Shown: positions 3,852-64,000, numbered from the stretch's first letter. The stretch is DNA of 64,000 bases from a virus (IMGVR_UViG_3300027757_000725:32001-96000); one strand, 5' to 3'. The notes: generated by a model from the sequence alone, not told the origin. Program-made: numbers and translations.

Positions 3852-3880
3852 ATTGTATGATGGAATTAACAAAAATTCAA
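3852..3880 (-). promoter_or_regulatory. Sigma70-type promoter TTGAAT-17-TACAAT for the SSB/glycosyltransferase operon
   Basis: Reverse complement of attgta (3852-3857) and attcaa (3875-3880), 17-nt spacer. Confidence 0.6.
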
Positions 3881-6835
3881 ATCAATCAAGTAGAATTTCC
3901 TGTTTTTTTGAGTAGTAGTGGCGATTTTTCTATTTCGCAAGGTAAAAATGTGGACATTGAACTTGTGGAGTCGATTACTGGTGATTTTGAGATCACGGGA
4001 AGCCTGAGCCTAAATGGAGATATTGTCGACGGGTCTTCATTGGGTATTAATGACAACTATTACTTATTTGAAGATTTTGATAATGATTTATTAAACTCTT
4101 CTGGAAACGTTTTTCTTGATACCAAACATTCTTTGCCATCGAAAAATACAAATAACAATCTGCTTTGTAACGTTTCGAGCGTTTCTTTTAGGGAAAACTC
4201 GAGCAATAACACTATAATTGGGTTAAATTCATTTTACAACTTAAATATTAATGACTCTGTATTGTTTTTTGCTAAAGAGAATGGTTCGGAAGCATCTAGA
4301 TTGCACAGCAACTCAATAGTTATTGATTGTGATAACGGCAATTACTTTGATGGAGATTCTTTTTTCTTATCCAAAACAACTTTAAATAATGCAGTGTTTA
4401 AATCTGCTAATATTGGTGATTTAAGCTGCTCTTCTTTTGTGGTTAGCGGTTATTTTGAAGCTGATAGTCTAGTGTCAGAGTCCGCTTCTTTCCAGAATGG
4501 CGCTTGGGGAGGCTTAATTGAATTAAATGGCAACTCTAAAATCAGTAATGATTTTACAGATTCTAGTATAGTAACAGAAAAATGGGTTAACGAGCAAAAC
4601 TTTGCGTCTTCATCCAATCATTCTTTATCTGGAGTTGACGACTTAACATCTTCTGGTTATATTTTGATAGAGGGTTCTGAGTCACCTGTATCAAAAGTTG
4701 GAAATTTATTTTTTGACACTGGTGATATTAACGTTCCGTCAACAAGAATTAATCAATCACAAAACAAGGAAACTTTTATTGAGGGTCTGTTTTCTGGTAA
4801 TACGATCGTTTACATAGAAGATGGTTTTTTTGTTTCTGGGTTTGGGGGGGAAGAAATTAGATCAGGCGATTTTAATGTAGCGACTGAAAGTTGGGTTACG
4901 GGTCAAGGTTTTTTGACTGGACTTTTTGAGTTAAACAATAGAAATTTAATATTAAGTTCTTTAGAATTACAATCAGATATTAAATCTGAATCTTTATTCG
5001 TAAGCGGATATTATAACAACTTAAATACAGGGAGTAATAGTTTAGTAACAAATGATGTAGATATCGAAACAAACCAAGAGGTCAGCTTCGAAAATCTAGA
5101 GGTTAGCGGGTCCTTATACGTCACTAAAAACATAAATATAGGCAGTTTAAGTGATCTGGATTTTGGAGGGGGATTTTATGTAAAAGATTTAACATCTTCA
5201 AGTGCGAGCAATATAAACCTATCAAACTCGGCGCAGTTAACTGGATCTGATTTAGCTACAGAATCTTGGTTTGATACTTATCCATCAGAACTATCATCCA
5301 ACAAGGAGATTGTAGACCTAACATCAACTGGAAATGTCGGTCTTTTTGACAGCTCTATCATAGAAACTTTAACGCTTCCTTATTTAGCTGGTCCAAACCC
5401 AGATAATTATCCTTCTATAAATATAAATTCTAATTCTGTTTATTTTAATAATGTTGCAATCCCTACAAACACCCAAGTTTTAGCGCCTGATCAAAACTTT
5501 CCAAAAATAAAATCTACTGGATATAGTCCACATAATTTTATAAAAATACAAAAATCTTCTAGTCTTAATATAGGTAGTGGCAATCTTTGGAATACTTCTA
5601 TAGACTCAGGTCAGGCTCTGACAAAGATATCTAATAAGGGCTATATAACAATACCCAAAACGAATGTTGAGAGTTTGCATCAGCCTAGCGGTTTTAGGTT
5701 GGAAAAAATATCTGTTGATAATTTCAAAGTTAGCCCAGACCCAACAGCTGTAAAGCTCAATATTATATCTGGGACAAAACAAACAGATGATTATGATCCT
5801 TCTTATTTGAGGGTTTCTGATCTTAATGAAAAGTTATCAAATTGGGCTTTTGATTCACCGTTTACAGAAGTTATCCATAGAGATAAGTACATGCAAATAT
5901 GGTTAGATATATTAAATAGAGATAACCCTTATTTGAGTTGGACTTTTTTCAATAGGGTATTGCCAACAGCAAAAAATGTAAACTTATTTTGGAAACTATT
6001 TACTTATTGGTATGGTTGGGTGAATGGTCTTCAAAATACCAAACCAAATGTAAAACCTTATGTCGAGAACTTTCTGAACCTTGTTTATAATTCAAAAACA
6101 AAGGCTAATGCAGCTGGTCAATCTGGGCAAGATTGCATTGTTGGAGTTTGGCAAGATTATATACAAAATCAGGGTTTATTAGCTAATGAGGATACTAATG
6201 TAGTAGATTGGGATGATAGTGATTTAGAAGTTTACAGTAATCTTTTTTATTCCGTGTATCAAAAAACAATGTGGGACGATTTGTTGAATTACAAAAACCA
6301 ATATGCAGCTTACGATACTCCAACTTATGATAATTTTGGTTTATCTGATATATTAAAAGGTAAATTTGAAGGCGAAGAAATATATTATATGAGCTTCCCT
6401 TCTGCTTGGATTCCTCAGTCGGATTCTGATGTTAATATAGACTCTTCTAAAGAAAACAAATTCAAACATAATTTGGTTCTTTCTAAAATAGATGATTTCT
6501 CAGATTACAGGTATGATTCAAGAAAAACCGTAAGACCTTATTTTAGAACCTTCAACCCCAATGAAACATTCAACCCTCTAAATAGATATGAAACAATAAA
6601 CACTGATTGCTGGTCCGACTTTTATACTGTAGATTCATTATTGTATAAATCATCTAAAATGTTTATGAGTAAATTTCCTAACGTTTTGGATAACGGATCT
6701 AGTTGGCAAGATCAAATACCTGATTCGCACCAATATGATGGAGGCGGATGGAAAAATGGTTCTGTTCATAATAGAGTCTTTCCAGATTTAGATTTAATTC
6801 CAAGTAACTTGTCAGAAATGACTTACAGTTCATAA
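3857..6835 (+). CDS. Large virion fibre/spike-like protein, paralogue 1 of 3
   Basis: N-terminus TKIQINQ shared with the next two genes; Ser/Asn/Gly-rich beta-repeat body; ATESW-type motifs; unique C-terminus. Confidence 0.6.
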   Translation: MMELTKIQINQVEFPVFLSSSGDFSISQGKNVDIELVESITGDFEITGSLSLNGDIVDGSSLGINDNYYLFEDFDNDLLNSSGNVFLDTKHSLPSKNTNNNLLCNVSSVSFRENSSNNTIIGLNSFYNLNINDSVLFFAKENGSEASRLHSNSIVIDCDNGNYFDGDSFFLSKTTLNNAVFKSANIGDLSCSSFVVSGYFEADSLVSESASFQNGAWGGLIELNGNSKISNDFTDSSIVTEKWVNEQNFASSSNHSLSGVDDLTSSGYILIEGSESPVSKVGNLFFDTGDINVPSTRINQSQNKETFIEGLFSGNTIVYIEDGFFVSGFGGEEIRSGDFNVATESWVTGQGFLTGLFELNNRNLILSSLELQSDIKSESLFVSGYYNNLNTGSNSLVTNDVDIETNQEVSFENLEVSGSLYVTKNINIGSLSDLDFGGGFYVKDLTSSSASNINLSNSAQLTGSDLATESWFDTYPSELSSNKEIVDLTSTGNVGLFDSSIIETLTLPYLAGPNPDNYPSININSNSVYFNNVAIPTNTQVLAPDQNFPKIKSTGYSPHNFIKIQKSSSLNIGSGNLWNTSIDSGQALTKISNKGYITIPKTNVESLHQPSGFRLEKISVDNFKVSPDPTAVKLNIISGTKQTDDYDPSYLRVSDLNEKLSNWAFDSPFTEVIHRDKYMQIWLDILNRDNPYLSWTFFNRVLPTAKNVNLFWKLFTYWYGWVNGLQNTKPNVKPYVENFLNLVYNSKTKANAAGQSGQDCIVGVWQDYIQNQGLLANEDTNVVDWDDSDLEVYSNLFYSVYQKTMWDDLLNYKNQYAAYDTPTYDNFGLSDILKGKFEGEEIYYMSFPSAWIPQSDSDVNIDSSKENKFKHNLVLSKIDDFSDYRYDSRKTVRPYFRTFNPNETFNPLNRYETINTDCWSDFYTVDSLLYKSSKMFMSKFPNVLDNGSSWQDQIPDSHQYDGGGWKNGSVHNRVFPDLDLIPSNLSEMTYSS

Positions 6836-6841: not shown

Positions 6842-9091
6842 ATGGCTTACAATAAAATAAAAATAAATCAAATAGATATGCCAGAGGTTATATCTAACGA
6901 CCTAACTGTATCAGAAACAAGTTCTGGTTATCATTTCGGTCTTGGTTTTCCCATAAATCATGACATAAATATAAGTGGATCACTTACAGTCAACGGTGTT
7001 GAAATATATGGAAATAAATCGTATTATGATCCATATGTTAACTCTGTATTATGTGGTTATGAAAATATTATATCTGGCGGAAATAATTCTGTAATAAGAG
7101 GTAATGAAAATTTAATATCTGGCGAAAAAAATATTATTTTAAACGGGGATAACAATTCTTTCTATTATTCTGATTTCAACGCTGTTATTGCTGGGTCTAA
7201 TGTAACTTTTTCAAATTCAAAAGGAAGTGTTGTTATAGCATCTAACAATGAAGAGATTAAAGAAGTAAAAGAGAGTAGTTCTCTATACCTTTACCACGAA
7301 AACATATATGTTTACGGAGATACTCATTTTGAAAAAAGTGTTTCTTTTAATGAAAAGACAGAACTATCAAAGCTAGTTGTTTCAAATTCTTTAGTTGCTA
7401 GTTCAATAAAATCATCAAACTCGTCTATTTTTTATGATAAATCAAAATTCACTTCAAACTCTCAAATTAATGGAGAAACTTTTTTTGGTGAATATACTCT
7501 AAGGGATCTTACAAGAAAGAATCAATCTAATAAATTTAGTGAAGTAAAAATAAGTGGCGAAAACGTAGCTACAAAGCAGTGGATTGAAGATAAAAACTTT
7601 ACGACTGGACTCATTGTAATGCGTTTTGACGAGGTTGATGTGTCTGGAGATTTTGTTTTGGATCATGGAAACTTAATTGAATACAATTCTGTTTTAAACG
7701 TCACGGGAGACGTTATAGCTTATGGTAGTACTGGAGAAGAAACTTTTTTGCTTAATGATTCGACACTAACAGCAAATAATTTTTCTTGTGTATCTGGATA
7801 TGTTTTAGATAAAGACTCAAGCGAATATATTAATATTGCTTCTGCTGACTGGTTATCTGGTCAAGGTTACTCTAGTTCAGATGAGGGTATATCAGCTGGC
7901 TTTTATACAGAAGGTAATATAAATATATCTAAAGATTTGTATTTAACTGGTCAATTAAATGTTAATTCTGGGTTTGATTTGCATGGAAATTATACAAATA
8001 GCGGCGCAAGCTTTATTGGTGGCAATTTAAATGTATCTGGAGATTCTTATATTAAAAATATTTATATAACTGGTAGCTTAAGTGGACAAAGCTTATATAA
8101 TGAAAGTTCATTATATAATATAAGTGGCGTTTCATTAACTGGTGAGTCTATGGATTTAAAAGATTCTACGTTCATGGTTACTGGAAGTGAGGTTATAAGA
8201 GAATCTTATTTGTTAGAAAACTATCTTTTATATTCAGGCATTTCAAACTTTAAAAATTGCAAGTTTAATGGGGTAAGTTTAATTTCTGGGGTTTTAAACT
8301 TTTATGGTAATACCAAGGTCAGCGATTTTTATCTTAATGGTCACTGCGAGTTTAGTTCAGATCAAGTAGAATTAAATAATATATCTGGAGATTTTCATGT
8401 TGAAGATGTTCTTGGAGAATTGAATTTCAATGTAGAACAATGTAATCTCGCAGATTTGCAAGGGGTTGTAGACGTAACCATTAAAGAAAGTTTTGTGGAT
8501 ACTGGAATTAATTCATACTACAAGCAGAATGATATCATAGATATTAATCTATATTTAACTGGAAAAAACGAAATAAAAAAAGTTTGGGAAAGGTCTAGCT
8601 CATACTCACCATATAATCAAACATTTAACTATTTAGAAGATTCTGGAGATTGGTGGAAGTCAATGTATCACGGATTGACTGGCTATGAAACTGAAAAGTT
8701 TGAAAACAAGATAAAAGAAATTAGCCCGTCTTTGTACAAATACGATGAAGCTTGTCTCGAAGGTTGGATCGAGTGGTTGGCAATAAATGAACCATTAAAA
8801 AATAATGATGTTACTGGCTATATGACTACAGAAAGCCAAGTAAAATGTGCTATAGATCAGGAGCTTGAGAGTTTGTCTTTAATTGGCTTGGAATTAGAAA
8901 ATCTTGTTTTACTTGAGTCAAATCAAGATGTTCAAGAACAGGCTGACTGGCTTGTTTCTGGTTGCGATATAGAACTTAAAAATAAGCAAGTTGTTGAATA
9001 TAGAGTGGATTGGTTTAACAACCCATCAGCCAATAATATCAATAATAATTTTGGAGGAAGAAATTACTATCCAAGAATAAGAATAAAATAA
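6842..9091 (+). CDS. Large virion fibre/spike-like protein, paralogue 2 of 3
   Basis: NKIKINQ N-terminus; GxxNxIxG head-like repeats; VATKQWIEDKNFTTGLI. Confidence 0.6.
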   Translation: MAYNKIKINQIDMPEVISNDLTVSETSSGYHFGLGFPINHDINISGSLTVNGVEIYGNKSYYDPYVNSVLCGYENIISGGNNSVIRGNENLISGEKNIILNGDNNSFYYSDFNAVIAGSNVTFSNSKGSVVIASNNEEIKEVKESSSLYLYHENIYVYGDTHFEKSVSFNEKTELSKLVVSNSLVASSIKSSNSSIFYDKSKFTSNSQINGETFFGEYTLRDLTRKNQSNKFSEVKISGENVATKQWIEDKNFTTGLIVMRFDEVDVSGDFVLDHGNLIEYNSVLNVTGDVIAYGSTGEETFLLNDSTLTANNFSCVSGYVLDKDSSEYINIASADWLSGQGYSSSDEGISAGFYTEGNINISKDLYLTGQLNVNSGFDLHGNYTNSGASFIGGNLNVSGDSYIKNIYITGSLSGQSLYNESSLYNISGVSLTGESMDLKDSTFMVTGSEVIRESYLLENYLLYSGISNFKNCKFNGVSLISGVLNFYGNTKVSDFYLNGHCEFSSDQVELNNISGDFHVEDVLGELNFNVEQCNLADLQGVVDVTIKESFVDTGINSYYKQNDIIDINLYLTGKNEIKKVWERSSSYSPYNQTFNYLEDSGDWWKSMYHGLTGYETEKFENKIKEISPSLYKYDEACLEGWIEWLAINEPLKNNDVTGYMTTESQVKCAIDQELESLSLIGLELENLVLLESNQDVQEQADWLVSGCDIELKNKQVVEYRVDWFNNPSANNINNNFGGRNYYPRIRIK

Positions 9092-9092: not shown

Positions 9093-11870
9093 ATGAGTTA
9101 TCAAAAAATAAAATCAAATCAATTTGAAAACATAATTTTAGGTTCTAACAGCCAAAATTTATTATTATCTAATAATAACAATTCCGAATTAGATATAAGT
9201 TTAAATCGTTTTTTATCGGGAGACATTTCTGTCAGCGGCTCCATATCTGTAAATGACAAAGAGGTTGTAGTTGAAAAACAACAAACCGACAATTCCTCTT
9301 ACTTTGTTTTCCAAGGGGAAAAAAATATTATTAATGGAGAGAACGTTTTTATACAAGGCTATTCAAATAATGTAAATTCAAATTCTGTATTTTTATTTGG
9401 AAGTGAATCAATGACAATGGAAAAAGGTGCTGACAATATCTTTTCTGTAGGTTCAATGAGTGCAAATGCCACAAGTAATAACATAATATCTGTCTCTAAT
9501 CTTCTTGGCAGTAAGAGTATTGTAGACAAATCTTTTGTTTCTTTGTTTTCATTTAGTAATAATTTCTTCAATGGAGAATCGTATTTTGATAATATAAACG
9601 GGGATACAGTTTTTGCTGACGAAACTTTGTCTTGTTCTGATTTGAAATTGCAAAAAGCGAATGTTAGTGGGGCTTTTATATCTGATTACAGGAGCGAATT
9701 TAACGGTAAAGTAGATTTTGATTCTGATTTAAGAATAATGGGTAATAGTTCTTTTTATGACTTATATAAGGGTGAGAGTCAAGTAGCGGATGAACTTTGG
9801 GTTGAATCTAAAAATTATACAACTGGATTAATAACGGGGGATTCAGAATTATCTGATGGGTTTTCATCTTTGGATTTCAATGTATCTGGTGATGCCATCA
9901 TGAGTGGTCAATCGTTAGTGCTGTTAAACGAAGATTTTTTTGTTGATGGAGATTTTATTATAGACCAAAACTTGGATGTAGGGGATAGGTTTTTTAAAAA
10001 AATAACCATAACTGGAGATATAGCAAAAACTTCTAACTCAGATATTTTAAATAGAGCTTCTATTTTTAATTTAAATTATATTATTACAGGTGATTCTTAT
10101 GTTCAGGTTTTTGGAGAAAGTTATATAACGGGAGAAATTACTGGGCAAGATTCCAGTATACAAAATATATTGCACTACTCTGGGGATATGTTTTCAGATA
10201 ATTTATCTTGCAAGGAGGGTTCTTTTCACAGTAATGATTTAAAGGTAGGAGGTGACTCTCATTTTACAGGTTCGGTTAATTTTTTGGATCAGACGAATAC
10301 TGGTTTCGATGTTGTTGGCGCGGTTAACCTGAGTAGTCTTGATGCAAGCATACTTAATGTGAATGCTGAAGATCTAAACTTTACCAATTTTATTAAGTTG
10401 GGTGGGTCGAACTTAGCTACAGAAAGTTGGATTCAAAATAATTTAATGACTGGTTTTGATCAAAACAGATTAAATGGTGGCTTCAATTCTAGTGATTCTT
10501 ACTTCAATAAAATTGATTGTTTTAGTGGAGTCAATATTGAAGGTTATGGTCTTGATGTCGAAAACCTATATATAGATACTGGAGCTGGTTCAGGAGAATA
10601 CAGGACAAGAATAAAATCAAATAAGAGGGTCGATATAAACAATTCATATGGGAATATATCTTACGGTAATGGAAGCTTTTCTGATCTTATTGGTTATTGT
10701 GATAATTTGCAAATTGAAAATGCTGATCAGATTAATTTAAGTTTTATTAATGGAGCTTCAGAAAAAAACTGGGTTTTTGGGACTAACATTATATTAGACA
10801 TAGATGATTCACAATTAAGTGGCATATTAGTTGATAGTGGTGTTATGAATCAACTTTTTGAAAATCAAAATTTAGGCGAGATTGCTCAATTTGCAAATAG
10901 GGAAGTTATACAGAGAAAAACTCGTAACACAATGATACCAAAGCAAAATAATAAAAGCATTAACGTCGAGATATCTTTGAAAAACGATCTTTCTTCTAAT
11001 ACTTCTAAGTATATAAATTCCTCTTCAGTTGGTCTTTCTAAAGGATGTTTGAGGTTTTCCAACATACAAAACAAATATAGAGCATCAGAAGAAAAGAATG
11101 TTGACTTTGCCACTTCTTTGAGGGATAACCTAGTAAAATGGTATGAGTTTGGTTACGATACAAACAAATATAGTATTGTCGATGGCGATATAACAGGTTC
11201 AAGCAGCTTCCAAAAAGTTACTTTCGAAAGTATTAATGGTCATTGGGATGATAATAAAATTGCATTTTGGGAAAGTGATACGTCATCTTCTTCGGAATAC
11301 TTTTCCCTAAGAGACTCTACATCATCAGAACAAGATGTTTTTAATAACAACAGTACTGTTGCCGCTTCTTATATAAGAAGAAATGCAAACTTATCTAATT
11401 CTGGTCTTTCTCAGCTTATTGCTCCATCAAATGGAGGAACCCCTTCTTATGAGGAGGGTTGTTATTTTATTTACGAAAGTGGTAGTTGGCATTTCCAGCC
11501 TAGATTTTGGGGCGTAGATAATACAATATCATCTACTAGCACATTAGATATTGGTTGGGAATTTGAACAATTTCCAGAGTTTGTGACTGTAGTTGGAACG
11601 TCGCAATTTTATGCAAACCAAGACATAGGGCAAGGATTTAAAAATTATTATACTTATAAGACATATCTGAATGGGGGTTTAGTTCATGAAGAGGTTGATA
11701 CAACCGACACAAACTATAATCAAGTTATGTTTATAAATGAACACAATAACCCAAGACAAGCCATGGCTGTGCAAAATGCTGTGATATCATCAAGACCTTG
11801 GGGTCAGTCGGAGATAGATGCTTACTCTAACTCTGGTCAAAGCATTCCTTATTGGAATATTTACCAATAA
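9093..11870 (+). CDS. Large virion fibre/spike-like protein, paralogue 3 of 3, with C-terminal LamG-like lectin domain
   Basis: QKIKSNQ N-terminus; VADELWVESKNYTTGLI; C-terminal LVKWYEF...KTYLNG...ISSRPWGQSEIDAYSN. Confidence 0.6.
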   Translation: MSYQKIKSNQFENIILGSNSQNLLLSNNNNSELDISLNRFLSGDISVSGSISVNDKEVVVEKQQTDNSSYFVFQGEKNIINGENVFIQGYSNNVNSNSVFLFGSESMTMEKGADNIFSVGSMSANATSNNIISVSNLLGSKSIVDKSFVSLFSFSNNFFNGESYFDNINGDTVFADETLSCSDLKLQKANVSGAFISDYRSEFNGKVDFDSDLRIMGNSSFYDLYKGESQVADELWVESKNYTTGLITGDSELSDGFSSLDFNVSGDAIMSGQSLVLLNEDFFVDGDFIIDQNLDVGDRFFKKITITGDIAKTSNSDILNRASIFNLNYIITGDSYVQVFGESYITGEITGQDSSIQNILHYSGDMFSDNLSCKEGSFHSNDLKVGGDSHFTGSVNFLDQTNTGFDVVGAVNLSSLDASILNVNAEDLNFTNFIKLGGSNLATESWIQNNLMTGFDQNRLNGGFNSSDSYFNKIDCFSGVNIEGYGLDVENLYIDTGAGSGEYRTRIKSNKRVDINNSYGNISYGNGSFSDLIGYCDNLQIENADQINLSFINGASEKNWVFGTNIILDIDDSQLSGILVDSGVMNQLFENQNLGEIAQFANREVIQRKTRNTMIPKQNNKSINVEISLKNDLSSNTSKYINSSSVGLSKGCLRFSNIQNKYRASEEKNVDFATSLRDNLVKWYEFGYDTNKYSIVDGDITGSSSFQKVTFESINGHWDDNKIAFWESDTSSSSEYFSLRDSTSSEQDVFNNNSTVAASYIRRNANLSNSGLSQLIAPSNGGTPSYEEGCYFIYESGSWHFQPRFWGVDNTISSTSTLDIGWEFEQFPEFVTVVGTSQFYANQDIGQGFKNYYTYKTYLNGGLVHEEVDTTDTNYNQVMFINEHNNPRQAMAVQNAVISSRPWGQSEIDAYSNSGQSIPYWNIYQ

Positions 11871-11874: not shown

Positions 11875-12258
11875 TTAATCTATGTCTATTCTGACGTTGG
11901 AGTTCTCAAAGGTTTTCTTTTGATCTCTGAGGTGCTTTTTACCCGTTTTCTTTTTGTAATCTTTAAAAAGCTTCTTCTTAACAGGATCTTCTCCGTCTGA
12001 TGATTTAGAAGCTCTTTCTTCAGAAAGTTCTGCAGAATAGTCCATCATATCGCCCACTGTACCCTTCATATTACCTGTTTTTTCTATGAATCCAGCCCTG
12101 TTGTCTGCATCTAGCTTACTATCAATTGATGCGTTAGGCTTGGTAAAGACTCTTTCCCATTTTAATCCGTCCTCTTCATAAATATGTTCGTCATTCATTT
12201 TTTGAATAACTTCTTTAGAGACTCCAGTTTTAGGATTTTTGTATAAGTAAATAGGCAT
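11875..12258 (-). CDS. FmdB-like small regulatory protein, zinc ligands lost
   Basis: MPIYLY start typical of FmdB zinc ribbons, but CxxCG replaced by NPKTG. Confidence 0.55.
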   Translation of the reverse strand: MPIYLYKNPKTGVSKEVIQKMNDEHIYEEDGLKWERVFTKPNASIDSKLDADNRAGFIEKTGNMKGTVGDMMDYSAELSEERASKSSDGEDPVKKKLFKDYKKKTGKKHLRDQKKTFENSNVRIDID

Positions 12259-49782: not shown

Positions 49783-49785
49783 AAA

Positions 49786-50816: not shown

Positions 50817-50859
50817 TCATCTAAAGGGGTGTTTTTTGTGTATTATCTTGTAATATCTT

Positions 50860-51561
50860 ATGCAGAATCAAGAGATGGAAAACAAGTTCGAAAATTTTTT
50901 TTACAAAGTCAAAAAAAAATGCTCAATGCACAAACATAAACATTTTTTTGATATATATGAAACACACTTCAATCAATTTTTAGGTAAAAACCCAAAAATT
51001 CTAGAAATAGGAGTTGGGCAAGGAGGCTCTCTTGAAATGTGGAATTATTACTTTGATGGGGAATGTGAAATATATGGTATTGATATAGATCCAGATTGTT
51101 TAAAGCATCAAGATACTCTTGGATTGAAAAACGTAGATATAACTATTGGGGATCAAGAAAGCAATGAATTTTGGGATAATTATCTTTTTGACAAGCCGAA
51201 ATTTGACATAATCATAGATGACGGTGGACATACAATGAATCAACAAATCGTTACTTTCGAAAACACTTATGAAAAAATGTCAGAATCTGGAGTTTATTTA
51301 TGCGAAGACGTTCAAACAAGTTATTTCCATGCTTTTGGAGGAGGATATAAATCAGAAGGTACGTTTTTAGAATATAGTAAGAACCTCATCGACGGTCTAA
51401 ACAGCAACTATAGTGATCATTCTGGTGGAAATTTCATACCTTATAATGAAGATCGCTTAACGGCTATACACAAGTCTACAAAATCCCTTACATATTATAA
51501 TGCCGTTTTGGTTTTTCAGCGGCAAAAGTACACAGAATATAAAGATGTTTTTTCAGTTTGA
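50860..51561 (+). CDS. Class I SAM-dependent (sugar O-)methyltransferase
   Basis: ILEIGVGQGGS; YGIDID; GDQ; DIIIDDGGH; YLCED. Confidence 0.88.
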   Translation: MQNQEMENKFENFFYKVKKKCSMHKHKHFFDIYETHFNQFLGKNPKILEIGVGQGGSLEMWNYYFDGECEIYGIDIDPDCLKHQDTLGLKNVDITIGDQESNEFWDNYLFDKPKFDIIIDDGGHTMNQQIVTFENTYEKMSESGVYLCEDVQTSYFHAFGGGYKSEGTFLEYSKNLIDGLNSNYSDHSGGNFIPYNEDRLTAIHKSTKSLTYYNAVLVFQRQKYTEYKDVFSV

Positions 51562-51642
51562 ATAAATATTGAAATAAAACAGTAAGGTTGTTTCTTTTTT
51601 TAAATAGTATTCCCTGAATCACAAGAATGTGTATACATAAAT

Positions 51643-51906
51643 ATGGGCATGAAGCTTTTGACTATATTCGGGAACACTATAAGGGGCGGTCACGTTACAT
51701 CCACAACTATCGGTTGCTGTTACGAACTTTGGAAAGATACTCAGGTTTGGCTTGATAATTGTAAATGGAAAGAGCCTGATGAAGTCGTTGGGGATTGTGT
51801 TGTTTGGTCAGAATCAGAACTCTGGGTTGAATCAGACCCCTTCTTAGTACAAGGAGTTTGGAATGCATCTGAAATTTGGGATCAAAGTTCAAACTGGTGT
51901 AATTGA
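51643..51906 (+). CDS. 87-aa Trp-periodic micro-protein
   Basis: Three W-x5-W clusters; N-terminal half paralogous to 42894; own GTGTAT motif. Confidence 0.75.
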   Translation: MGMKLLTIFGNTIRGGHVTSTTIGCCYELWKDTQVWLDNCKWKEPDEVVGDCVVWSESELWVESDPFLVQGVWNASEIWDQSSNWCN

Positions 51907-51976
51907 TTTTTCTTACTTTGCACTCAAGAACTTATTGATATTTTTGCGTAAAAAGAAAAATGGGTGATAGATAAGT

Positions 51977-52972
51977 TTGGTTGTGATTTCAATTTACATA
52001 GAACATTTCTTAAAGAAACGATTTATCGGAAATGTATCTTTTGATAATGTTGAATTTGTTGATTCAAAAGATGAGGCGGATTTCTGCATAAAAAAAGTTT
52101 TTTTTGATGATATAAATTCTGAGTTTTTTAAGAATAATTCAAAAACAATTTGTCTTATGCAAAGTATACCACATAAAAAAAGAGTTGATATCAGAAAAGG
52201 TTATTGCGTCGACAACAGAGTAGATATACCAACTATCAAGAACTTTTGCTTTAGTACTAATGATTTTTGTAATATACCATATCTCATCCCAACCCCAAGT
52301 GGTCCGATACGAAGCGGGTTTATATCACAAAAACCAAAATACTGGTTAGATTATAATATTAAAAATACAGATTTTTATAATAAAGTTTATTGGTGTGGTA
52401 GTAATTCTACACACGCAACACGAAAAGAGTTCTATGATTTTTACAATACTTTTGATGACGATAGATTTAATATAATTAAGTTTACGTCAAATGTCTATCA
52501 AACCGAAACATCACCAAGTATATATACAGATTACATTGAAGAGTTATCTAAATCTGATATATCCTTTGTTCTAAGAGGAGACAAAACTTTTGCAAACAGT
52601 TTTTTCGATGTTATTATGGCGGGATGCATACCAGTTATGATTTCGTCTATGAATTATTTTGGCTGGGAAAACATATTTGAGAATGTAGATGATTACATGT
52701 TGAGGTTTGATTTAAGAGAACATTCTATGGAATATATTCATGAGCAAGTGGTGCTTCTCTTAGAGGATAAGGAACGAGTTCTTCGCATGAAAGCAAATAT
52801 TGCAAACTTTTATAATAAATTCTTCAAACATTCTGCAAATTTTGGATTTGCGGAATTCCTTATAGCAAAGTGTATAGAGATATACAAAAACGATTTTGAT
52901 ATTGAGAAGATAGATAATGAGTTTATTTGTTCAGAGTTCTTAAAGCTTAAGGGCATAGATGGCAAGTTATAA
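51977..52972 (+). CDS. Exostosin-family (GT47-like) protein
   Basis: YWCGS..TH..R; YIEELSKS..FVLRGD; FFDVIMAGCIPV. Confidence 0.8.
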   Translation: MVVISIYIEHFLKKRFIGNVSFDNVEFVDSKDEADFCIKKVFFDDINSEFFKNNSKTICLMQSIPHKKRVDIRKGYCVDNRVDIPTIKNFCFSTNDFCNIPYLIPTPSGPIRSGFISQKPKYWLDYNIKNTDFYNKVYWCGSNSTHATRKEFYDFYNTFDDDRFNIIKFTSNVYQTETSPSIYTDYIEELSKSDISFVLRGDKTFANSFFDVIMAGCIPVMISSMNYFGWENIFENVDDYMLRFDLREHSMEYIHEQVVLLLEDKERVLRMKANIANFYNKFFKHSANFGFAEFLIAKCIEIYKNDFDIEKIDNEFICSEFLKLKGIDGKL

Positions 52973-53028: not shown

Positions 53029-53373
53029 ATGTCATGTGATACAGAAAAAACTATAACAGAAATCAAAAGAGGCTCCACTTTTGAGCAATCTTTGAGTTTT
53101 CTAGATGAAAACGAAGACGCAGTTAGCATAAGTGGTTGGACAGCAGAGAGTGATCTAAAAGTTTCTGTAGATCAAGATCCCTTATTATCTTTTGACATAG
53201 ATGATTCTCTTTTTGTTAGTGGTTTGATTACAATATCAGCGGATTCATCTGAAACACTATCTTTACCAGCTAACTTTAATTTAGAGTATGATGTAAAATT
53301 AACTGACCCAAGTGGTTCTGTTTATTATACCGACACAATGTATCTTAAAACAAGCAGACATATAACAGACTAA
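53029..53373 (+). CDS. Small Ig-like/BppU-like virion adaptor
   Basis: Likely start MSCDTE after GTGTAT; IKRGSTF...ISGW...YDVKL. Confidence 0.6.
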   Translation: MSCDTEKTITEIKRGSTFEQSLSFLDENEDAVSISGWTAESDLKVSVDQDPLLSFDIDDSLFVSGLITISADSSETLSLPANFNLEYDVKLTDPSGSVYYTDTMYLKTSRHITD

Positions 53374-54863
53374 TGTCAGAGCCAATTAAAGTAAAAATTC
53401 AAAACTTAAATGGTTCGATTAAGACTGTTAAAGTTCAAAATAAATTAGCAGAAAGCGCAGTCACCTCTGTTGCGGGTAGAATTGGTGACGTTATTCTTAG
53501 TCGTAATGATGTCGGTCTTAGCAATGTCAACAACACATCTGACTTAAACAAGCCTGTAAGTACAGCTACTCAAGACGCTATAGACGCAATAACTTTAACT
53601 GGTGATTACGCAGAAGTTGATCATCAACACTTTTTGGCTGACATTACCAACGCTGGCACTGCCGCTGCTGCCGATACGGGAGACTTCGCTACCGCCTCCC
53701 ACACGCATTTTTTGGGTGATATAAATGATGCTGGCACAGCGGCAGGATCAGACATTACTGACTTTGCCCCAGCCATACACACTCATTTGATGAGTGATGT
53801 CACTGACCTTACTGATGGTCCTATTGCGTTCACGAATAAAACACTAACAGATGCAAGTAACCTAATACATGCCGACCAGTTACATTTCAGGATTAAAGCA
53901 GACGAAAATTTACTTAAAGGTCAGCCAGTTAAATATGACAGCTTCAACGTAGGACAAAATGCTATTAATGTCAGCCTTTCTAATCAACTGACAGACGTTT
54001 CAATAGGTTTGGCTGAAGAGGATATACCTCAAGGGTCTTTTGGTAATATAATTACAGCTGGTGTTTTAGATCATGTAGATACTAGAGATTTCAACGAAGG
54101 CGAGATACTTTATGTTGATGGTCTTGGGCAACTTACTGGAGTCGAGCCTACAGGTGGATATTCTCAACCAATAGCTATATGCTTAAAAAGCCAACAAAAC
54201 AATGGAGCTTTACAGGTTTTAGCTTCTTATCCCAAACAGCCATCTACGGATGTAAGAAACGATTCTACTGTTTCAGGTTTAAATGTCACAGAAGCTCTTA
54301 ATAATTTAAACACATCAATACAAAGCATCGATATTGATAGCTTTTCCATAACAGGACACGAACACTTTGTATCAGATATAACTGATTTATTTACGGGAGA
54401 GTTTTCGCAAACTGGTCACGACCACGTTGTCGCAGACATCACGGATCTCAATACGGGAGCGTTTGCTCTCAGCGGTCACAATCATGTTGTTGGTGATGTT
54501 AGCGGAATTAAAGATAGTATTGGATTTGCCTGTAGTGATGAAACATCACCCTTATCTGTCGGGCAAGCTATAGCTACAGACATGCCTTATGACATGCTTG
54601 TAAGCAGAGTTTATGCAAGTTTAACTGCTACTGGATCATTAAGTGCTACCACTATAGATATTAAACAAGAAGGCTCTTCCATATTGAATTCAACGCTATC
54701 TATAAGTGCTGGAGCTAACAATGGAGAAACCAACCTATTTAGCGGCGCTGCTTCTACATTTTCTTTATCTAAAGGTGATCTACTCACCATAGATATAACA
54801 GCTATAGATGCAGCAGGAACAGATGCAGGATTAAAAGTTTACCTAGAAGGGGAAATTAATTAA
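53373..54863 (+). CDS. Tail fibre protein with HxH repeats and C-terminal adaptor domain
   Basis: VTSVAGRIGDV, VGLSNVNNTSDLNKPVS, six HxHxxxDI/V repeats, C-terminal ACSDET...MPY...AGLKVYLEG. Confidence 0.8.
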   Translation: MSEPIKVKIQNLNGSIKTVKVQNKLAESAVTSVAGRIGDVILSRNDVGLSNVNNTSDLNKPVSTATQDAIDAITLTGDYAEVDHQHFLADITNAGTAAAADTGDFATASHTHFLGDINDAGTAAGSDITDFAPAIHTHLMSDVTDLTDGPIAFTNKTLTDASNLIHADQLHFRIKADENLLKGQPVKYDSFNVGQNAINVSLSNQLTDVSIGLAEEDIPQGSFGNIITAGVLDHVDTRDFNEGEILYVDGLGQLTGVEPTGGYSQPIAICLKSQQNNGALQVLASYPKQPSTDVRNDSTVSGLNVTEALNNLNTSIQSIDIDSFSITGHEHFVSDITDLFTGEFSQTGHDHVVADITDLNTGAFALSGHNHVVGDVSGIKDSIGFACSDETSPLSVGQAIATDMPYDMLVSRVYASLTATGSLSATTIDIKQEGSSILNSTLSISAGANNGETNLFSGAASTFSLSKGDLLTIDITAIDAAGTDAGLKVYLEGEIN

Positions 54864-58531: not shown

Positions 58532-60286
58532 ATGATAATACAATCATTTAGAAGCGATAATGATTTAACTTTATTATATTCATCGCAAACTCAACTATAC
58601 CCTTTTCTAACAGGTTCTGGATTTGATACAGTATCTTATCAAAAAGATTCTATAGATGGTGATATACCATCAAGCGGATACAACAACACTGGAATTAATT
58701 CTGTTAGAGTTGGGGCATCTTGTGGTTTTATAGGAGATGAGGCTTTTGAATCTTGTAGTATTTCAGAATTGAACTTCCAAGAAGGTGTCACAGGGATTGG
58801 TGCTTTTTCCTTTGCAGATAACAGAATAAGTTATTTAAAAATGCCAGAATCATTAGTCGAAATTGATTCTGGTTGTTTTTCAAATGCTCTTTCTCAAGCT
58901 TCTGTCGAATTTAACTCAACTTTAACTTCTATTCCAGAACGTGCTTTTTTCAATTGTTCTTTTTCAACATTGTTGGATATACCTTCTAATATAACTAGTC
59001 TATCTGAAGAAAGTTTTGGCTATTGTTTTTTTGGGAGTGGTTTTAATATTCCTTCTAGTATAGATAAACTACCTCTGCGTTGCTTTATAGAATGCAATAT
59101 AACCGACAATGATTTAAATATAGACACTCAAATAATAGGGTCTGGAGCTTTTTTAGGTTTTGTTTCAGATGGAGCAGATATAACAGTTTCAACTGGGGTG
59201 ACTTCTATTGAAGATTTTGCATTTTCTAACGTCTATATAGAAAATGGGCAGCTAAACTTCAATCCAAGTAATAACTATATACCAAAAGACTGTTTTAACA
59301 GTTCTTACATAGACAAGCTTGTTATAGGTGATAATATAACAAACATAAAACCTTCTGCTTTTTATAAATTCAATCCATCTGCAGAATTTCTTTCTGGTAA
59401 TGAAAGAACCGAATATATAACAGACGAATCTAAAATTGTTTTAGGTAATTCTATCACAGGAATTGAAAGCGGAGCTTTTGAAGATTGTTTTGCTGGTCAA
59501 CTTTATATTTACAACATTCCAGCTTCTGGATTCCACGATAATTGTTTTGATCCTGAAATTATGCCCAACTGCTTTACTGCAAGCTCTATTTCAATACCTT
59601 CACTTCAATACTCTACTGGTATAATACCAACTGGAGAAAGGTTAGGTTGCTATAAATATGAAACAAATTATACAGGAACTTCTGATTTTTCAAACTTAGA
59701 CGCTTACTCTATAAGTATTGATTGGTGGGATGGTTGTAAAATCACACAATACTGTGTTGAAAATAATTTAGATTCACCATTTTCTGGAAATGTAATTCTG
59801 CAAGAGGATTGTCAATATTGGCCTAACTCTGGGAATCATCCTTGGACAGGTTATGCTTGGACTGGACTAATTAATGAAACAGATAATGATTACGCACTAG
59901 GTGGCTGGGTTCTTAATGCTTCTGGTGATAGTTTATCAGAATCCCACCCTTGGATTTTACCGAAGACAACTAAAGAAAAAGATATATTTAATGAGTATAG
60001 TGAAACATTAAAACCTAAATTTTATGATAGAATTAATGGAGAAATTTTTTGGGTTGGCGATGTATCAGGAAACTACATAAACTTAGATAGTGGAGCCTCC
60101 AATCTAAACATAGAAGTAATGCAATCTGGAGAAACTCTCGCAGAAACAGATTGGTTTTCGCCTTATGGAATAATTTTTGCTCATCCCGATATTGTAAATC
60201 AATATGATGACGATTGGGTTAGTAGGGTTAAATATGCAGGTAGAGTCTTAGAGTGGGAAACAGGAACTTATCCAGAAACTTACTAA
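58532..60286 (+). CDS. BspA-type LRR protein
   Basis: Multiple VTxIGxxAF/IPxxxTxI repeats. Confidence 0.8.
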   Translation: MIIQSFRSDNDLTLLYSSQTQLYPFLTGSGFDTVSYQKDSIDGDIPSSGYNNTGINSVRVGASCGFIGDEAFESCSISELNFQEGVTGIGAFSFADNRISYLKMPESLVEIDSGCFSNALSQASVEFNSTLTSIPERAFFNCSFSTLLDIPSNITSLSEESFGYCFFGSGFNIPSSIDKLPLRCFIECNITDNDLNIDTQIIGSGAFLGFVSDGADITVSTGVTSIEDFAFSNVYIENGQLNFNPSNNYIPKDCFNSSYIDKLVIGDNITNIKPSAFYKFNPSAEFLSGNERTEYITDESKIVLGNSITGIESGAFEDCFAGQLYIYNIPASGFHDNCFDPEIMPNCFTASSISIPSLQYSTGIIPTGERLGCYKYETNYTGTSDFSNLDAYSISIDWWDGCKITQYCVENNLDSPFSGNVILQEDCQYWPNSGNHPWTGYAWTGLINETDNDYALGGWVLNASGDSLSESHPWILPKTTKEKDIFNEYSETLKPKFYDRINGEIFWVGDVSGNYINLDSGASNLNIEVMQSGETLAETDWFSPYGIIFAHPDIVNQYDDDWVSRVKYAGRVLEWETGTYPETY

Positions 60287-60289: not shown

Positions 60290-63200
60290 ATGATAAACAA
60301 CAGTTACAGAAGAGGCTATAGTTATGGTCCATTAGGGTTGCATTATAATGAAAATGTATATCCAAATACAATTAAAACAAATCTTGTAGAATCAGAAGGA
60401 GACGACCCACTATCTATTCCAGATAATTGGCATAGTTTACTAAACCCACCATATGACCCTAATTATATTGAAAATGGAAGCGGGTTTATTGGTTATAATT
60501 ATTTAAACACTGCTAGAGTTTACGGAGAAAGGTGCTTCCTAAATGTTCCTAACTTTCTTGTTAGAGATCGTGTTGATTTTAATTTGCTTAATGCTGTTAC
60601 AGTTGAAGATTATGCATTTGCTGGTTTTGCTACTTCAAATAATAGATTATTAAATTTCAGTGATAAAATAGAATACATTGGAGATTATGCTTTTGCGCAA
60701 GCTGGTTTTAGTTTTGCTAATGAATTTGTTTTGGAAAATATTCCAGAATTAACTTATATAGGCAAGAACGCATTTATGCGTATTGAACCCGCTTCCATTA
60801 TATATGATAGTGGTAATTCTAAATTTGATTATCTTCCATTAAATTTAGTTTTAGACAACCCAGACTTGACAATTGAAGAGTCACCTTTCGATCAAGCTTT
60901 TGGATTTAGACAGGCTTCTTCTTACCCTTTTTTGTTAGAACAAGATGGCTCTTACAGCATGAGATTGCCTGAGTCAAAAAAGGATGAGCTTAAAGCTATT
61001 AAATTAGGTTCTTTTGAATATATGGCAGGTGGTCTATTTAAGAATTTAGAATACAAAGGATCAACCTTTAGATTTTTAGAAAGCTATCCTAAAAATACCA
61101 TATTTAAAAGTATGTTTGAATCGTACGAAGGTCTTGCAACAGTAACTGTTGAAAACTCTGGTATACAAACAATTGAAGATTATGCTTTTAAAAATTTCGG
61201 CAGTTATAAATACAATAGATTTGACAAATATTTTGGTGTTCAAGAAATTGCAATTACAAATCCACAAAACCCCACATTCACAAGTGGCGCTCACCATTAC
61301 AAAGATCTTATAAGAAATCTATCATCTCAAAATCAAATAGATGATATACCTTATCACAAAGAAACTAATATTTCCAGAATTGATTTTCATCCAGAAACAA
61401 TATTGACAGAAATAAGTCCCAGAGCATTTGAAAATTCTGATTTTTTATATTTGAATGTAGGTAAGACTCCACCAACATCATTTCCTAGAGGATCTTTTGG
61501 ACCAAAAACAGCATCAAATATGAGGTGTGCTTTTCCTTGGATCTCTCTTTCTGCTAGAACTGCTCCAAAGATAGAGGTTGGAGTTGATTGGTCAGATTCT
61601 CATAAAAGAAAACTAGAACAAGAAGATAGAAATAATGGTCTTTATCATTATGTAACTAATGAGTTAGACCAATTTACAATGGATCTTGCAGACCAAATTA
61701 ACGAAAATACTGATGGTCAGATTTTCTCAGAAGATTCTGGTAACGTTTCCTTTGAATATTGTAACATAGAGGAATTAGAATTCACGCCATTTTACGATAA
61801 TAGTCCAGTGCCTGATGGTCTTGCAGGTTATGTTACTTTTGATTTTGCAGGTACAGAATATGAACAAGAGTCTGGAACTAATACTGCTGTATATAGTTTT
61901 GATATGCCTTCTGCCTTCGATACAAGAGATATTTGCAGTAATGGTATATTGTCTTATTCCACAGGTTCGGGTTGGGGGGTAGAAGGTACAGAATCCGAAG
62001 GAGGTTGGGATGTATCAATTTCTCTTGACCAATCTGGCAATGAAACTTCTTCTGTCGGTTATTATTACGATAATGCTGGAAGTGCAATAGATGGTGATGT
62101 TACAATTAATCTAACACGTTTTTCATCAAAAACACAGCCTCCGAGTTTTACTGGTATCGCAAGAACAACAGCAACTCTTGCGCTAGAAAGTTTTGAGAAA
62201 CAATCTTTTCCATTAGAAGAGTTTACCTATTATGATGAAGTATTCAATGGTTTTGACCCAGAAGGTAATCCAACTTTTCTTACTGGCGATGTTTTCGTAG
62301 AAGGACCATCGTTCGAACTACCAGAAGGTTTTGAAGAAGTAGAATTTCAATATGACACAAAGCTTTGGCGCTGGAAATTAAATGTTGAATGCGATGTTGA
62401 TTTTGATGAAGTTTTTAACAGCCAAGGTGGTGCGGGAACTGGTTACTTTAGCGGTTTAAGCACTAGTTGCTGGACAGATCAAATAAATCCATTAAAAGCT
62501 TGTTATGTATCAGATTTCTTGGACTCAAAATATTATTCACCCCCTCAAAATGCAAGAAACTTACCAGAAAAATTATGGTTCCAAGAAGGTATTCAAGAAT
62601 TACTGTCTCCATTTTCTAATACGAATAGCAAAGACCCAAAATTTGATTGGTTCGCCAATATGCATAATGAGAGCGGTTATGTTTATGACTATACGGTAGG
62701 TGATAGTAGTCGAGTTTATTATGACGTAATTATAGGTCCAAATGATTTTGGACCAGCCGAAAACTATGAGTTGGAAACTGCCACTGACTTAGCAACAGAA
62801 AATAAATATAGGCAAAGTGTACCTTGTGGTGGAGATCGTGGTCACGCTTGGTTATGGGAAGTTGATCTAAGAGATAAATTTTCATATTTATTTAATGATG
62901 AAAAATCTAGAAATAGAAGATTCCGTTATGGTCATGTTAATCAACTTTTTCAACAATCAATCTTTGGCGAAATAGCAAATTCTAAATTAATTACAGGAAG
63001 AGAATTTGACCAAAACTTCTCGCCGATTTCATTAGCAGATCAGCAAAAAACGAGTCAAATATTCAGAGAGACGCTACCAATGCTAGGAAGTTCTACAAAA
63101 GCTCCAGAAATGGGCATGGAATACTCGCAATACTTTGCTAAACATAATAGATTGTTTGAAAGAGATTATAATATTAATCAAGATAAGCTTTCTGAAAATC

Positions 63201-64000
63201 TTGTTGAAGTTATAGAAGCTCAAAATCATAATATTGAAGAATGCAATAGTGGACATTTAGTAAAGAACTCTGTTACTTGCGAATATCTTCACTATAACGA
63301 AATGACTGATTTCTTTTTAAATCGTTTTAATTATTCAGAACTAGATAGCTTGCAATTTGTTCCAGAAAGTGGTGAATTAGGAGTTAACAACCAACTACTT
63401 CAAAACAGAGTTTACAATAACGATTATCTTATAGAAAGATTAAGATTAAAACTTGACGAACCCCATTTTAACGACCTAATAGAAACAGATGGGAAAAATT
63501 CTTATGGATCAAGTTGCTTAGGAAGAGCTGGATCAAAACAAGTTCCTTATACGATTGGTGGAGCATGGGTTCTAAGATTTCATCATACTCATCCAGATAA
63601 TTATGAAGTTGATGATTCTGGGGAATTTACCACAGGAGCTACGCCAGATCTTCACGCACACCAAGAGTTAGACGGTATATATATTAAATGGGATTATGTA
63701 AGAGATGGTTTTGGTCCTGCGGAATACATTATAGATGTAGAAAATGATGAAGCTATAGATATATTACAGGGTAGATTAGATGTTAGTGGTACTTTTAGCA
63801 ATCTCGCTCGATTCGAGAATTCTTCAATTGGAGATTACACTTACCAAGATCGCACGGGATTCCGTAGTGAGAGTGGTTTTAATCCTCTGTATGAAAGTAA
63901 GGGGGTTTTTGGCACAGGTGAAGATTTCTTATCTTTTGAAAGACCATTGATTTATCAATCACAAGACCTTACAGGGGTAGTTGGAGAAACTACAGGGGTA
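60290..64000 (+). CDS. Partial very large (>1200 aa) protein with N-terminal BspA-type LRRs, runs off window end
   Basis: Not in ORF track (no stop); ATG 60290 MINNSYRRG...VTVEDYAF...IEYIGDYAF...; same frame reads ...QDLTGVVGETTGV at window end; middle not fully hand-translated. Confidence 0.75.
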   Translation, partial: MINNSYRRGYSYGPLGLHYNENVYPNTIKTNLVESEGDDPLSIPDNWHSLLNPPYDPNYIENGSGFIGYNYLNTARVYGERCFLNVPNFLVRDRVDFNLLNAVTVEDYAFAGFATSNNRLLNFSDKIEYIGDYAFAQAGFSFANEFVLENIPELTYIGKNAFMRIEPASIIYDSGNSKFDYLPLNLVLDNPDLTIEESPFDQAFGFRQASSYPFLLEQDGSYSMRLPESKKDELKAIKLGSFEYMAGGLFKNLEYKGSTFRFLESYPKNTIFKSMFESYEGLATVTVENSGIQTIEDYAFKNFGSYKYNRFDKYFGVQEIAITNPQNPTFTSGAHHYKDLIRNLSSQNQIDDIPYHKETNISRIDFHPETILTEISPRAFENSDFLYLNVGKTPPTSFPRGSFGPKTASNMRCAFPWISLSARTAPKIEVGVDWSDSHKRKLEQEDRNNGLYHYVTNELDQFTMDLADQINENTDGQIFSEDSGNVSFEYCNIEELEFTPFYDNSPVPDGLAGYVTFDFAGTEYEQESGTNTAVYSFDMPSAFDTRDICSNGILSYSTGSGWGVEGTESEGGWDVSISLDQSGNETSSVGYYYDNAGSAIDGDVTINLTRFSSKTQPPSFTGIARTTATLALESFEKQSFPLEEFTYYDEVFNGFDPEGNPTFLTGDVFVEGPSFELPEGFEEVEFQYDTKLWRWKLNVECDVDFDEVFNSQGGAGTGYFSGLSTSCWTDQINPLKACYVSDFLDSKYYSPPQNARNLPEKLWFQEGIQELLSPFSNTNSKDPKFDWFANMHNESGYVYDYTVGDSSRVYYDVIIGPNDFGPAENYELETATDLATENKYRQSVPCGGDRGHAWLWEVDLRDKFSYLFNDEKSRNRRFRYGHVNQLFQQSIFGEIANSKLITGREFDQNFSPISLADQQKTSQIFRETLPMLGSSTKAPEMGMEYSQYFAKHNRLFERDYNINQDKLSENLVEVIEAQNHNIEECNSGHLVKNSVTCEYLHYNEMTDFFLNRFNYSELDSLQFVPESGELGVNNQLLQNRVYNNDYLIERLRLKLDEPHFNDLIETDGKNSYGSSCLGRAGSKQVPYTIGGAWVLRFHHTHPDNYEVDDSGEFTTGATPDLHAHQELDGIYIKWDYVRDGFGPAEYIIDVENDEAIDILQGRLDVSGTFSNLARFENSSIGDYTYQDRTGFRSESGFNPLYESKGVFGTGEDFLSFERPLIYQSQDLTGVVGETTGV

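Follow-up and report, generated by a model that had tools for sequence, protein, structure and literature searches.

Which acceptors are served by the glycosyltransferases (GTs) encoded on either side of the fiber genes of a large, uncultured tailed phage? The genes in question are located on IMGVR_UViG_3300027757_000725:32001-96000, a stretch of 64,000 nucleotides with a GC content of 33% that is further referred to as the window. Fiber-type proteins encoded there display a pronounced excess of glycines that directly follow a serine or threonine ([S/T]G). Because Ser or Thr precedes about half of the glycines of outer tail proteins and three soluble GT genes are always present around the fiber genes, glycosylation of the tail by the phage itself is plausible. 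Judged from sequences and structural models, we assign a probability of roughly 0.4 to the reading in which distal tail proteins are O-glycosylated by the phage itself, by means of its predicted GTs.

To our knowledge, virion glycosylation by phage enzymes has been established chemically for a few actinobacteriophages only, and we know of no sequon. If tail self-glycosylation does occur here, the host-recognition organ of the phage would carry a serotype-like sugar coat, an extra glycan layer that may affect how hosts are recognized, how stable the particles are, or how grazers and defenses are evaded. It would also explain the large sets of soluble sugar genes without export machinery in many aquatic phages. 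Should the motif described below be the acceptor code, glycosylated tail proteins would become predictable from sequence across metagenomes.

Sequence analysis

Sixty open reading frames (ORFs) of the window were translated and scanned with Pfam, and genes are named by their start coordinate in the window. The [S/T]G count of each protein was tested against 2000 shuffles of that protein and is reported as the observed/expected ratio (O/E) with its z-score. Related loci were collected by scanning IMG/VR with an alignment of the fiber family. In the complete relative G003 (147,748 bp, CheckV 100%), head and tail roles were assigned by gene order and size only, as no family matched.

Serine/threonine-glycine bias in fiber-type proteins

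Five proteins of the window are enriched in [S/T]G, namely the fiber paralogs 3857, 6842 and 9093, the leucine-rich repeat (LRR) protein 58532 and the fiber protein 60290 (Table 1). The bias is located in the shafts of the three paralogs and in the C-terminal halves of 58532 and 60290. It is concentrated in residues 1-640 of 3857, the C-terminal domain of which has an O/E of 0.49, and the shaft and C-terminal domain of 9093 have values of 2.06 and 0.97. In the C-terminal half of 58532, which is non-repetitive, 13 of the 21 glycines follow S or T (O/E 3.74).

A preliminary description of the window had counted the glycines after S or T in 6842 by hand, and this count is exact. The same pattern had been noticed in 3857, 9093, 53373, 58532 and 60290; it is present in four of these (z 3.1-6.4) but only marginal in 53373 (z 1.9). 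The wider statement that fiber-type proteins are rich in [S/T]G applies to the five enriched proteins and not to the LamG protein 55383 (O/E 0.65), the LRR tip proteins 43647, 45218 and 45955 (0.18-1.19) or the C-termini of 3857 and 9093. The pattern had been described as not obvious in replication enzymes, in agreement with the pooled enzymes and other non-fiber proteins (SG 1.02, TG 1.14). The triple LamG-domain protein (55383-57428) displays the opposite bias, with 9 [S/T]G against 13.8 expected and 22 occurrences of G[S/T].

The excess is specific for hydroxyl residues: pooled over the five enriched proteins, O/E amounts to 1.85 for SG and 2.78 for TG, with NG at 0.87, DG at 0.70 and the reverse dipeptide G[S/T] at expectation. 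The residue before S/T is mostly I, V or L, such that [VIL][ST]G occurs 52 times versus 12.1 expected (z 12.5); with a polar residue after the glycine, it is found 36 times versus 5.0 expected. Extending the motif to [ST]G.[ST] or T.[ST]G gives far weaker signals (z 3.5 and 2.6, respectively). The codon pairs are diverse (TCT, ACT, AGT, ACA and AGC with all four Gly codons, covering both Ser codon families), which rules out a DNA-level motif as the source of the bias and points to selection on the protein.

Several trivial or known causes were considered. Repeats alone cannot account for the bias, since it is also found where they are missing, in non-repetitive proteins and in the C-terminal half of 58532. 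Avoidance of the deamidation-prone NG and DG is unsupported as a driver, since NG is about 0.9 everywhere and DG is also low in the enzymes of the lineage. Proteoglycan-type Ser-Gly xylosylation does not fit either, as the position before S/T is hydrophobic, Thr is as frequent as Ser and no GT14-type xylosyltransferase family was found. Finally, 13 fibers, tailspikes and tail proteins of phages T4, lambda, T7, K1F, P22 and phi29 have a pooled [S/T]G O/E of 1.03 (maximum 1.45), which rules out the bias as a generic property of fibers or beta-helix tailspikes. The favored pre-glycine pairs in these 13 proteins are NG (1.35) and DG (1.70), with TG at 0.83. In the lineage studied here, S and T occupy the pre-glycine place that is held by N and D in the fibers of the model phages.

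Bias and site conservation across the lineage

A profile of the three fiber paralogs retrieved only 65 proteins among 1.8 billion, nearly all of which share the conserved N-terminus M-A-F-x-K-I-Q-P. Their pooled [S/T]G O/E is 2.16 and many sites are located in conserved alignment columns. The bias extends beyond this family: three non-repetitive proteins encoded upstream of the GT island in relatives are as biased as the fibers, for instance a protein of 279 aa in which 16 of 21 glycines follow S or T. In G003 only five ORFs reach z ≥ 3, namely proteins of 154 aa, 447 aa (29/45 glycines) and 257 aa (15/24 glycines), the fiber and an LRR protein. The presumed terminase, portal, capsid and tape measure of G003 range from 0.3 to 1.2 and its enzymes are at about 1. 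As the presumed head proteins are not enriched, the signal marks a few distal tail proteins rather than the whole coat.

Conservation was compared in three unrelated families. An S or T before G remains S or T in 70-74% of the aligned homolog residues, versus 36-47% for other S/T, and the Gly that follows is conserved in 69-78%, versus 47-64%. Replacement by N or D is rarer at S/T before G than at other S/T sites. In these alignments, the [S/T]G dipeptide is conserved as a unit across unrelated, predicted outer tail proteins of the lineage. About half of the sites per protein lie at positions common to at least 80% of the homologs. The remaining sites are scattered over many low-occupancy columns, an apparent turnover that is inflated by alignment error at 30-40% identity, and the counts per protein vary little.

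The fiber-GT locus

The IMG/VR scan yielded 51 loci. Homologs of 372 and 1511 are located just upstream of the fiber gene and on the opposite strand in 49 of the 51 loci, and a homolog of 12260 lies just downstream in 48; the loci that lack either are those cut by a contig end. Identity to the homologs is 55-62% for 1511, 49-64% for 12260 and 33-37% for 372, whereas the fibers share only 30-40%. No GT-less relative was present in the collections searched: every relative found carries GTs. Most relatives (L010-L060, ~10001-11000) encode one small fiber of 230-485 aa between the two GT islands. In the phage of the window, three large paralogs of 749-992 aa, which are 22-25% identical, fill 8 kb at the same place (3857-11870).

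Two relatives of about 200 kb have extreme fibers, with 22 of 42 and 90 of 129 glycines after S/T, followed by homologs of 11875, 12260 and the sigma-like 13326; their records contain further GT1 and GT2 matches. More widely, 458 IMG/VR stretches encode a relative of the 12260-type GT, and the fiber-like genes that neighbor its distant members are usually enriched (1.5-2.7).

Outside this lineage, similarity is scarce. The first 25 kb of the window had no nucleotide match among 50,697 phage records (megablast), and 6842 and 1511 had no protein-level match in phage records (tblastn). For 12260, a single weak match in Microcystis phage Mel-JY01 was obtained, and the LRR protein 58532 gave eight weak matches, all in records of uncultured gut or rumen phages. 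A word-based homolog search with 6842 returned only the query, a search of viral contigs with 58532 gave no match, and PHROGs held no family for the enriched tail proteins tested. For the His-x-His fiber 53373, matches covering no more than 38% of the protein were obtained in 398 phage records, some of them from cultured phages of Arthrobacter, Gordonia and Synechococcus; weak matches include minor tail proteins of many actinobacteriophages.

Glycan genes of the window

The three core enzymes are soluble GT-type proteins by family match or fold. The AlphaFold2 model of 372 has a mean predicted confidence (pLDDT) of 85 and its sequence matches are weak. The protein begins directly with the C-lobe of the GT9 fold, which is the only GT9 part present, and it lacks a four-Cys finger. 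By VIA-align, residues 1-187 match WaaF (1PSW, Z 16.4), WaaC (Z 15.3-16.0) and TibC (4RAP/4RB4, Z 14.3-14.4), with the next group at about 12. Its neighbor 1511 has a C270-x2-C273-x14-C288-x2-C291 ribbon as an insertion immediately ahead of the C-terminal Rossmann domain, and 44 of 44 sequences retain all four Cys. The model of 12260 (pLDDT 91.8) has as its top Foldseek match 3OY2, a putative GT of chlorovirus NY-2A (E 5e-16, template modeling score 0.70), with further matches to MshA, BshA and WaaG.

Clear family matches were obtained for nine genes (1511, 18222, 18992, 20084, 21601, 38832, 48428, 49786 and 50860), to which 372 and 12260 are added by fold. The preliminary description had put the number of glycan-related genes at 18 or more. 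About 15 have some family or fold evidence and two, 20886 and 50481, have no support, so that its estimate was slightly generous. None of the glycan enzymes of the window has a transmembrane-like hydropathy segment, and no flippase, polymerase or ligase was found in the window.

The Maf-like gene 17539 is present in only a few relatives, and no relative of its family was found in bacterial or archaeal genomes. Its assignment as a Maf flagellin nonulosonate transferase was rejected, as the match is below threshold, the protein has 228 aa versus about 600 aa for the multidomain Maf proteins, and the neighboring gene encodes an HpcH aldolase instead of NeuB. In G003, about ten different ORFs of 195-307 aa (72980-80191; L066, L067) are located between the ribonucleotide reductase (RNR) genes and a divergent GDP-mannose 4,6-dehydratase (GMD)-like gene (phmmer E 1e-34 to 21601). 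They occupy the position of the Maf/aldolase/cytidylyltransferase cassette of the window, and the slot therefore looks swappable.

Proposed tail self-glycosylation and its alternatives

In the proposed mechanism, the fibers and a few baseplate-side proteins would be the acceptors and would be modified in the host cytoplasm. The core soluble GT-B enzymes, of the 12260 type, the four-Cys 1511 type and the GT9-like 372 type, would attach sugars to the Ser/Thr of hydrophobic-[S/T]-G turns. Swappable cassettes may then supply and add type-specific decorations: GMD with the fucosyltransferase-like enzymes, a CMP (cytidine monophosphate)-ulosonate-type cassette, FkbM and SAM (S-adenosylmethionine) methyltransferases, and sulfotransferases. 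Since these cassettes come without export parts, a cytoplasmic acceptor is implied. The action of the GTs on these tail proteins, the use of [S/T]-G as acceptor site and the identity of the transferred sugars are inferred, and so is any connection between the virion and the enzymes for fucose, sulfate, methyl and ulosonate groups.

Two ideas of the preliminary description are modified by these results. It had proposed x[S/T]G as an O-glycosylation sequon. The underlying bias is real, hydroxyl-specific, at the protein level, lineage-wide and adjacent to soluble GTs, but the motif is better written as hydrophobic-[S/T]-G and is also a structural turn. Its glycosylated coat is not sustained, as the bias is confined to a few distal tail proteins and the presumed capsid, portal and tape measure of G003 are unenriched. 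A more specific scenario, which we consider doubtful, is that in this uncultured aquatic lineage S/T-G at strand ends directs hyper-O-glycosylation of the fibers and outer baseplate proteins by a conserved set of a GT4, a four-Cys GT4 and a split GT9-like enzyme, with swappable cassettes providing a tail glycan specific to each phage type, which would be fucosylated, methylated, sulfated or ulosonate-bearing.

A close mechanistic precedent is TibC, a GT9-fold enzyme with a four-Cys iron finger for substrate recognition. Its targets are Ser residues in the beta-helix of TibA, which receive heptose; one of them, Ser-313, lies in N-S-G-G (PMC4358343). TibC and Aah, acting on TibA and AIDA-I, are soluble cytoplasmic GT9-fold enzymes encoded beside their beta-helical substrate; 372 likewise has a GT9 C-lobe, and the invariant four-Cys ribbon of 1511 recalls the finger of TibC. 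However, enzymes of this type combine the finger with an N-terminal beta-barrel in one protein and form dodecamers; here, only the C-lobe of GT9 is present and the Cys ribbon is part of a separate GT4-type protein. TibC modifies Ser only, whereas Thr is as common as Ser in the present motif. In the present case phage tail proteins would be modified, a pathway for ADP-heptose was not found, and 372 scores slightly higher to WaaF and WaaC than to TibC. Mycobacteriophage virions are glycosylated by phage-encoded GTs on the C-termini of capsid and tail-tube subunits (Freeman et al. 2023, as cited in PMC12619734). The phage of the window shares the phage-encoded soluble GTs, but its candidate sites are internal hydrophobic-[S/T]-G turns of distal tail proteins. 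The head genes lie outside the window, and the presumed head proteins of G003 are unbiased. Chloroviruses also encode their own soluble GTs and a GMD, and the best structural match of 12260 comes from one of them; they are eukaryotic viruses, and the function of 3OY2 is itself only putative. The chlorovirus major capsid protein carries N-linked glycans. Large and variable sugar-gene sets including GMD are also known from marine phages, such as the 'LPS' (lipopolysaccharide) clusters of cyanomyoviruses.

Several points count against tail self-glycosylation. All 51 loci belong to one lineage and are therefore not 51 independent events, which makes the co-occurrence of fibers and GTs nearly equivalent to one evolutionary event. 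Fibers and GTs are encoded on opposite strands, and the GT islands are co-oriented with the SSB (single-stranded DNA-binding protein)-like 3222 and the sigma-like 13326, so that the adjacency to the fibers may be fixed genome architecture. Some GT-carrying relatives have large fiber-like neighbors that are unenriched (L136 0.97, L147 0.71). The half of the sites that is positionally conserved behaves as structural residues would. Hydrophobic-[S/T]-G is a regular turn of the solved beta-roll of the Lolium perenne ice-binding protein (LpIBP; 3ULT, PF21300), with V/I-S/T-G in its repeat turns. Residues 67-136 of 6842 form a predicted beta-roll that resembles LpIBP and the UspA1 head, with residues 75-127 aligning to LpIBP. 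No phage enzyme is involved in LpIBP, and part of the signal is therefore structural. This likeness accounts only for N-terminal beta-roll segments; the bias of proteins without repeats and of the C-terminal half of 58532 is left unexplained by it. Finally, 372 is closer to WaaC and WaaF than to TibC, and GT9 and GT4 are also families of LPS core synthesis.

Alternatively, two unrelated features may be combined here. Hydrophobic-[S/T]-G would then be a fold or stability element of distal tail proteins, a strand end with a tight turn, and the GTs and cassettes would act at the cytoplasmic face on host envelope precursors such as LPS core, O-antigen or capsule units. Their action could block superinfection or stop progeny from sticking to debris. 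Such roles have been proposed for cyanophage 'LPS' clusters and have been shown for the gtr genes of P22. Those genes adjoin the tailspike gene and are encoded on the other strand, like the glycan genes next to the fibers here. The presence of S/T at the pre-glycine position that is filled by N and D in the model fibers and the variation of sugar cassettes between relatives, reminiscent of serotype loci, agree with this explanation. However, enrichment is also seen in proteins without repeats and in the non-repeat C-terminal half of 58532, and LRR_5 proteins of the same fold in the same phage are not enriched, so fold alone does not dictate the bias. Many sites turn over while counts remain steady. 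The GT trio belongs strictly to the core of the lineage, with identities of 55-64%, and in this respect differs from the usual accessory genes for host modification. GtrA, GtrB and GtrC are membrane proteins, and a Gtr-type O-antigen conversion module was rejected for the window: the Pfam scans revealed no GtrA flippase, GtrB bactoprenol GT or GtrC family, and transmembrane-like hydropathy is lacking. We regard a structural motif combined with host-envelope GTs as only somewhat less probable than tail self-glycosylation. What would remain is a lineage-specific structural signature, in which Ser/Thr stand in for Asn/Asp ahead of Gly, together with core GTs that target the host envelope.

DNA glycosylation by the three core enzymes, in the manner of the alpha- and beta-glucosyltransferases of T4 and unrelated to the bias, appears improbable. 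The GT-B fold would suit it, as would the strand and operon shared with the SSB-like and sigma-like genes and the DUF1599 'nucleotide modification associated' domain at 42074. The first of these genes, 3222, heads the operon with 1511 and 372 and has an acidic DDVPF tail like the bacterial SSB tip; it has a homolog in G003 and no Pfam family. Against this, no thymidylate-synthase-type hydroxymethylase (PF00303) or ThyX (PF02511) was found in the complete relatives G003 and G001, nor such a hydroxymethylase gene by Pfam scans of the window, and the dipeptide bias is left unexplained. A search of the relatives for TET/JBP (PF12851) gave no match, but its control matched nowhere either.

Least probable is a reader of [S/T]-G other than a GT, such as a kinase, cross-linking or proteolytic maturation, or a turn-recognizing assembly chaperone: a dipeptide that is hydroxyl-specific, conserved as a unit and confined to a few tail proteins would fit, but the Pfam scans detected no kinase, protease or cross-linking family near the fibers, and GTs are the only enzymes that always travel with them.

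Table 1. Fiber-type and glycan-related genes of the window. Genes within a cluster are listed by start coordinate.
Position	Strand	Feature	Evidence or remark
372..1508	-	GT9-like; residues 1-187 resemble the nucleotide-sugar (C-lobe) Rossmann domain of heptosyltransferases, then a second domain	Fold
1511..3235	-	Core GT4-type glycosyltransferase; stop overlaps 372 start	PF00534, 31.2 bits (cut-off 26.4)
3222..3872	-	First gene of minus-strand island, possibly SSB-like; not a glycan gene	Ends ...DSFSDDVPF
3857..6835	+	Fiber paralog 1, 992 aa	24/65 Gly after S/T, O/E 1.93, z 3.8
6842..9091	+	Fiber paralog 2, 749 aa	29/61 Gly after S/T, O/E 2.78, z 6.8
9093..11870	+	Fiber paralog 3, 925 aa	24/75 Gly after S/T, O/E 1.72, z 3.1
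11875..12258	-	Small conserved protein, always follows the 12260-type GT	Homologs adjoin fibers even in the ~200-kb relatives L061 and L062
12260..13345	-	Core GT-B (GT4-like) glycosyltransferase directly downstream of fiber block	Fold
17539..22629	+	Variable sugar cassette (next seven genes)	Family searches
17539		MptE/Maf-like, 228 aa	Weak, 25.1 bits (cut-off 34.6)
18222		HpcH aldolase	Clear family match
18992		Cytidylyltransferase, PseF/KdsB-like	Clear family match; best NCBIfam match PseF
19651		HAD-like	Weak or below cut-off
20084		CAP59/GT-A	Clear family match
20886		ORF in sugar cassette	No support as glycan gene
21601		GMD	338 bits
38085..40660	-	38085, FkbM-domain two-domain protein 38832 and 170-aa protein 40148
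38085		Fucosyltransferase-superfamily-like	Lead only (Atlas features and structure)
38832		FkbM	Clear family match
46677..52972	+	Second accessory glycan cluster (next seven genes), between fiber-tip genes and fiber genes	Mostly absent from G003
46677		584 aa; C-terminal half fucosyltransferase-like	Lead only (Atlas features and structure)
48428		FkbM	Clear family match
49018		Stealth-like	Weak or below cut-off
49786		Sulfotransferase (Sulfotransfer_2)	Clear family match
50481		ORF in second glycan cluster	No support as glycan gene
50860		SAM methyltransferase	Clear family match
51977		GT47-like	Weak or below cut-off
53373..54863	+	His-x-His repeat fiber protein	Marginal, O/E 1.58, z 1.9
58532..60286	+	BspA-type LRR protein	25/48 Gly after S/T, O/E 2.84, z 6.4
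60290..64000	+	Large LRR-containing fiber protein, runs off the window	25/95 Gly after S/T, O/E 1.83, z 3.5

Other features of the window

Two adjoining minus-strand genes encode poly-Ser tracts: about 50 residues at the N-terminus of the 170-aa protein 40148-40660 are poly-Ser/Ala, and 40674-41789 has an internal S6-GG-S5 tract. The genes of the FkbM-domain protein and the fucosyltransferase-like protein come directly downstream of both. By sequence, these tracts are candidate O-glycosylation sites at least as obvious as [S/T]G.

Among the tail proteins, 53373 consists of repeated T-G-x-F-x(4)-H-x-H units; the His-x-His motif is known from T4-type fibers. The LRR tip proteins 43647, 45218 and 45955 have a common N-terminus (M-S-H-T), and another one (M-x-Q-x-N-F-x-P-T...D-A-E-S-R-L) is shared by the small proteins 43060-43647 and 58097-58525. 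The G-G-(S-G)6 linker of 43060 gives rise to a spurious Serglycin Pfam match.

Transcription signals offered no clue to timing: the GTGTA[A/T] late-promoter motif has 54 matches versus 57.7 expected, which makes it unusable for this purpose, and sigma-70-like promoter scans were at chance level. No tRNA genes were found in the window. Moraphages (PMC12619734) were excluded as the lineage of the phage, as they have PolB and T4-like structural genes. Library scans identified a DnaE-type polymerase, a separate PHP gene, DnaB, a primase, an RNR and a RecA-like protein, and the window also encodes a ClpB-like ATPase, an Hsp20 and an M15 peptidase. In the polymerase region (28785-33381), the PHP domain is a gene of its own (28785), and two ORFs separate it from the polymerase core 30775, one of which is the DnaQ-like exonuclease 30194.

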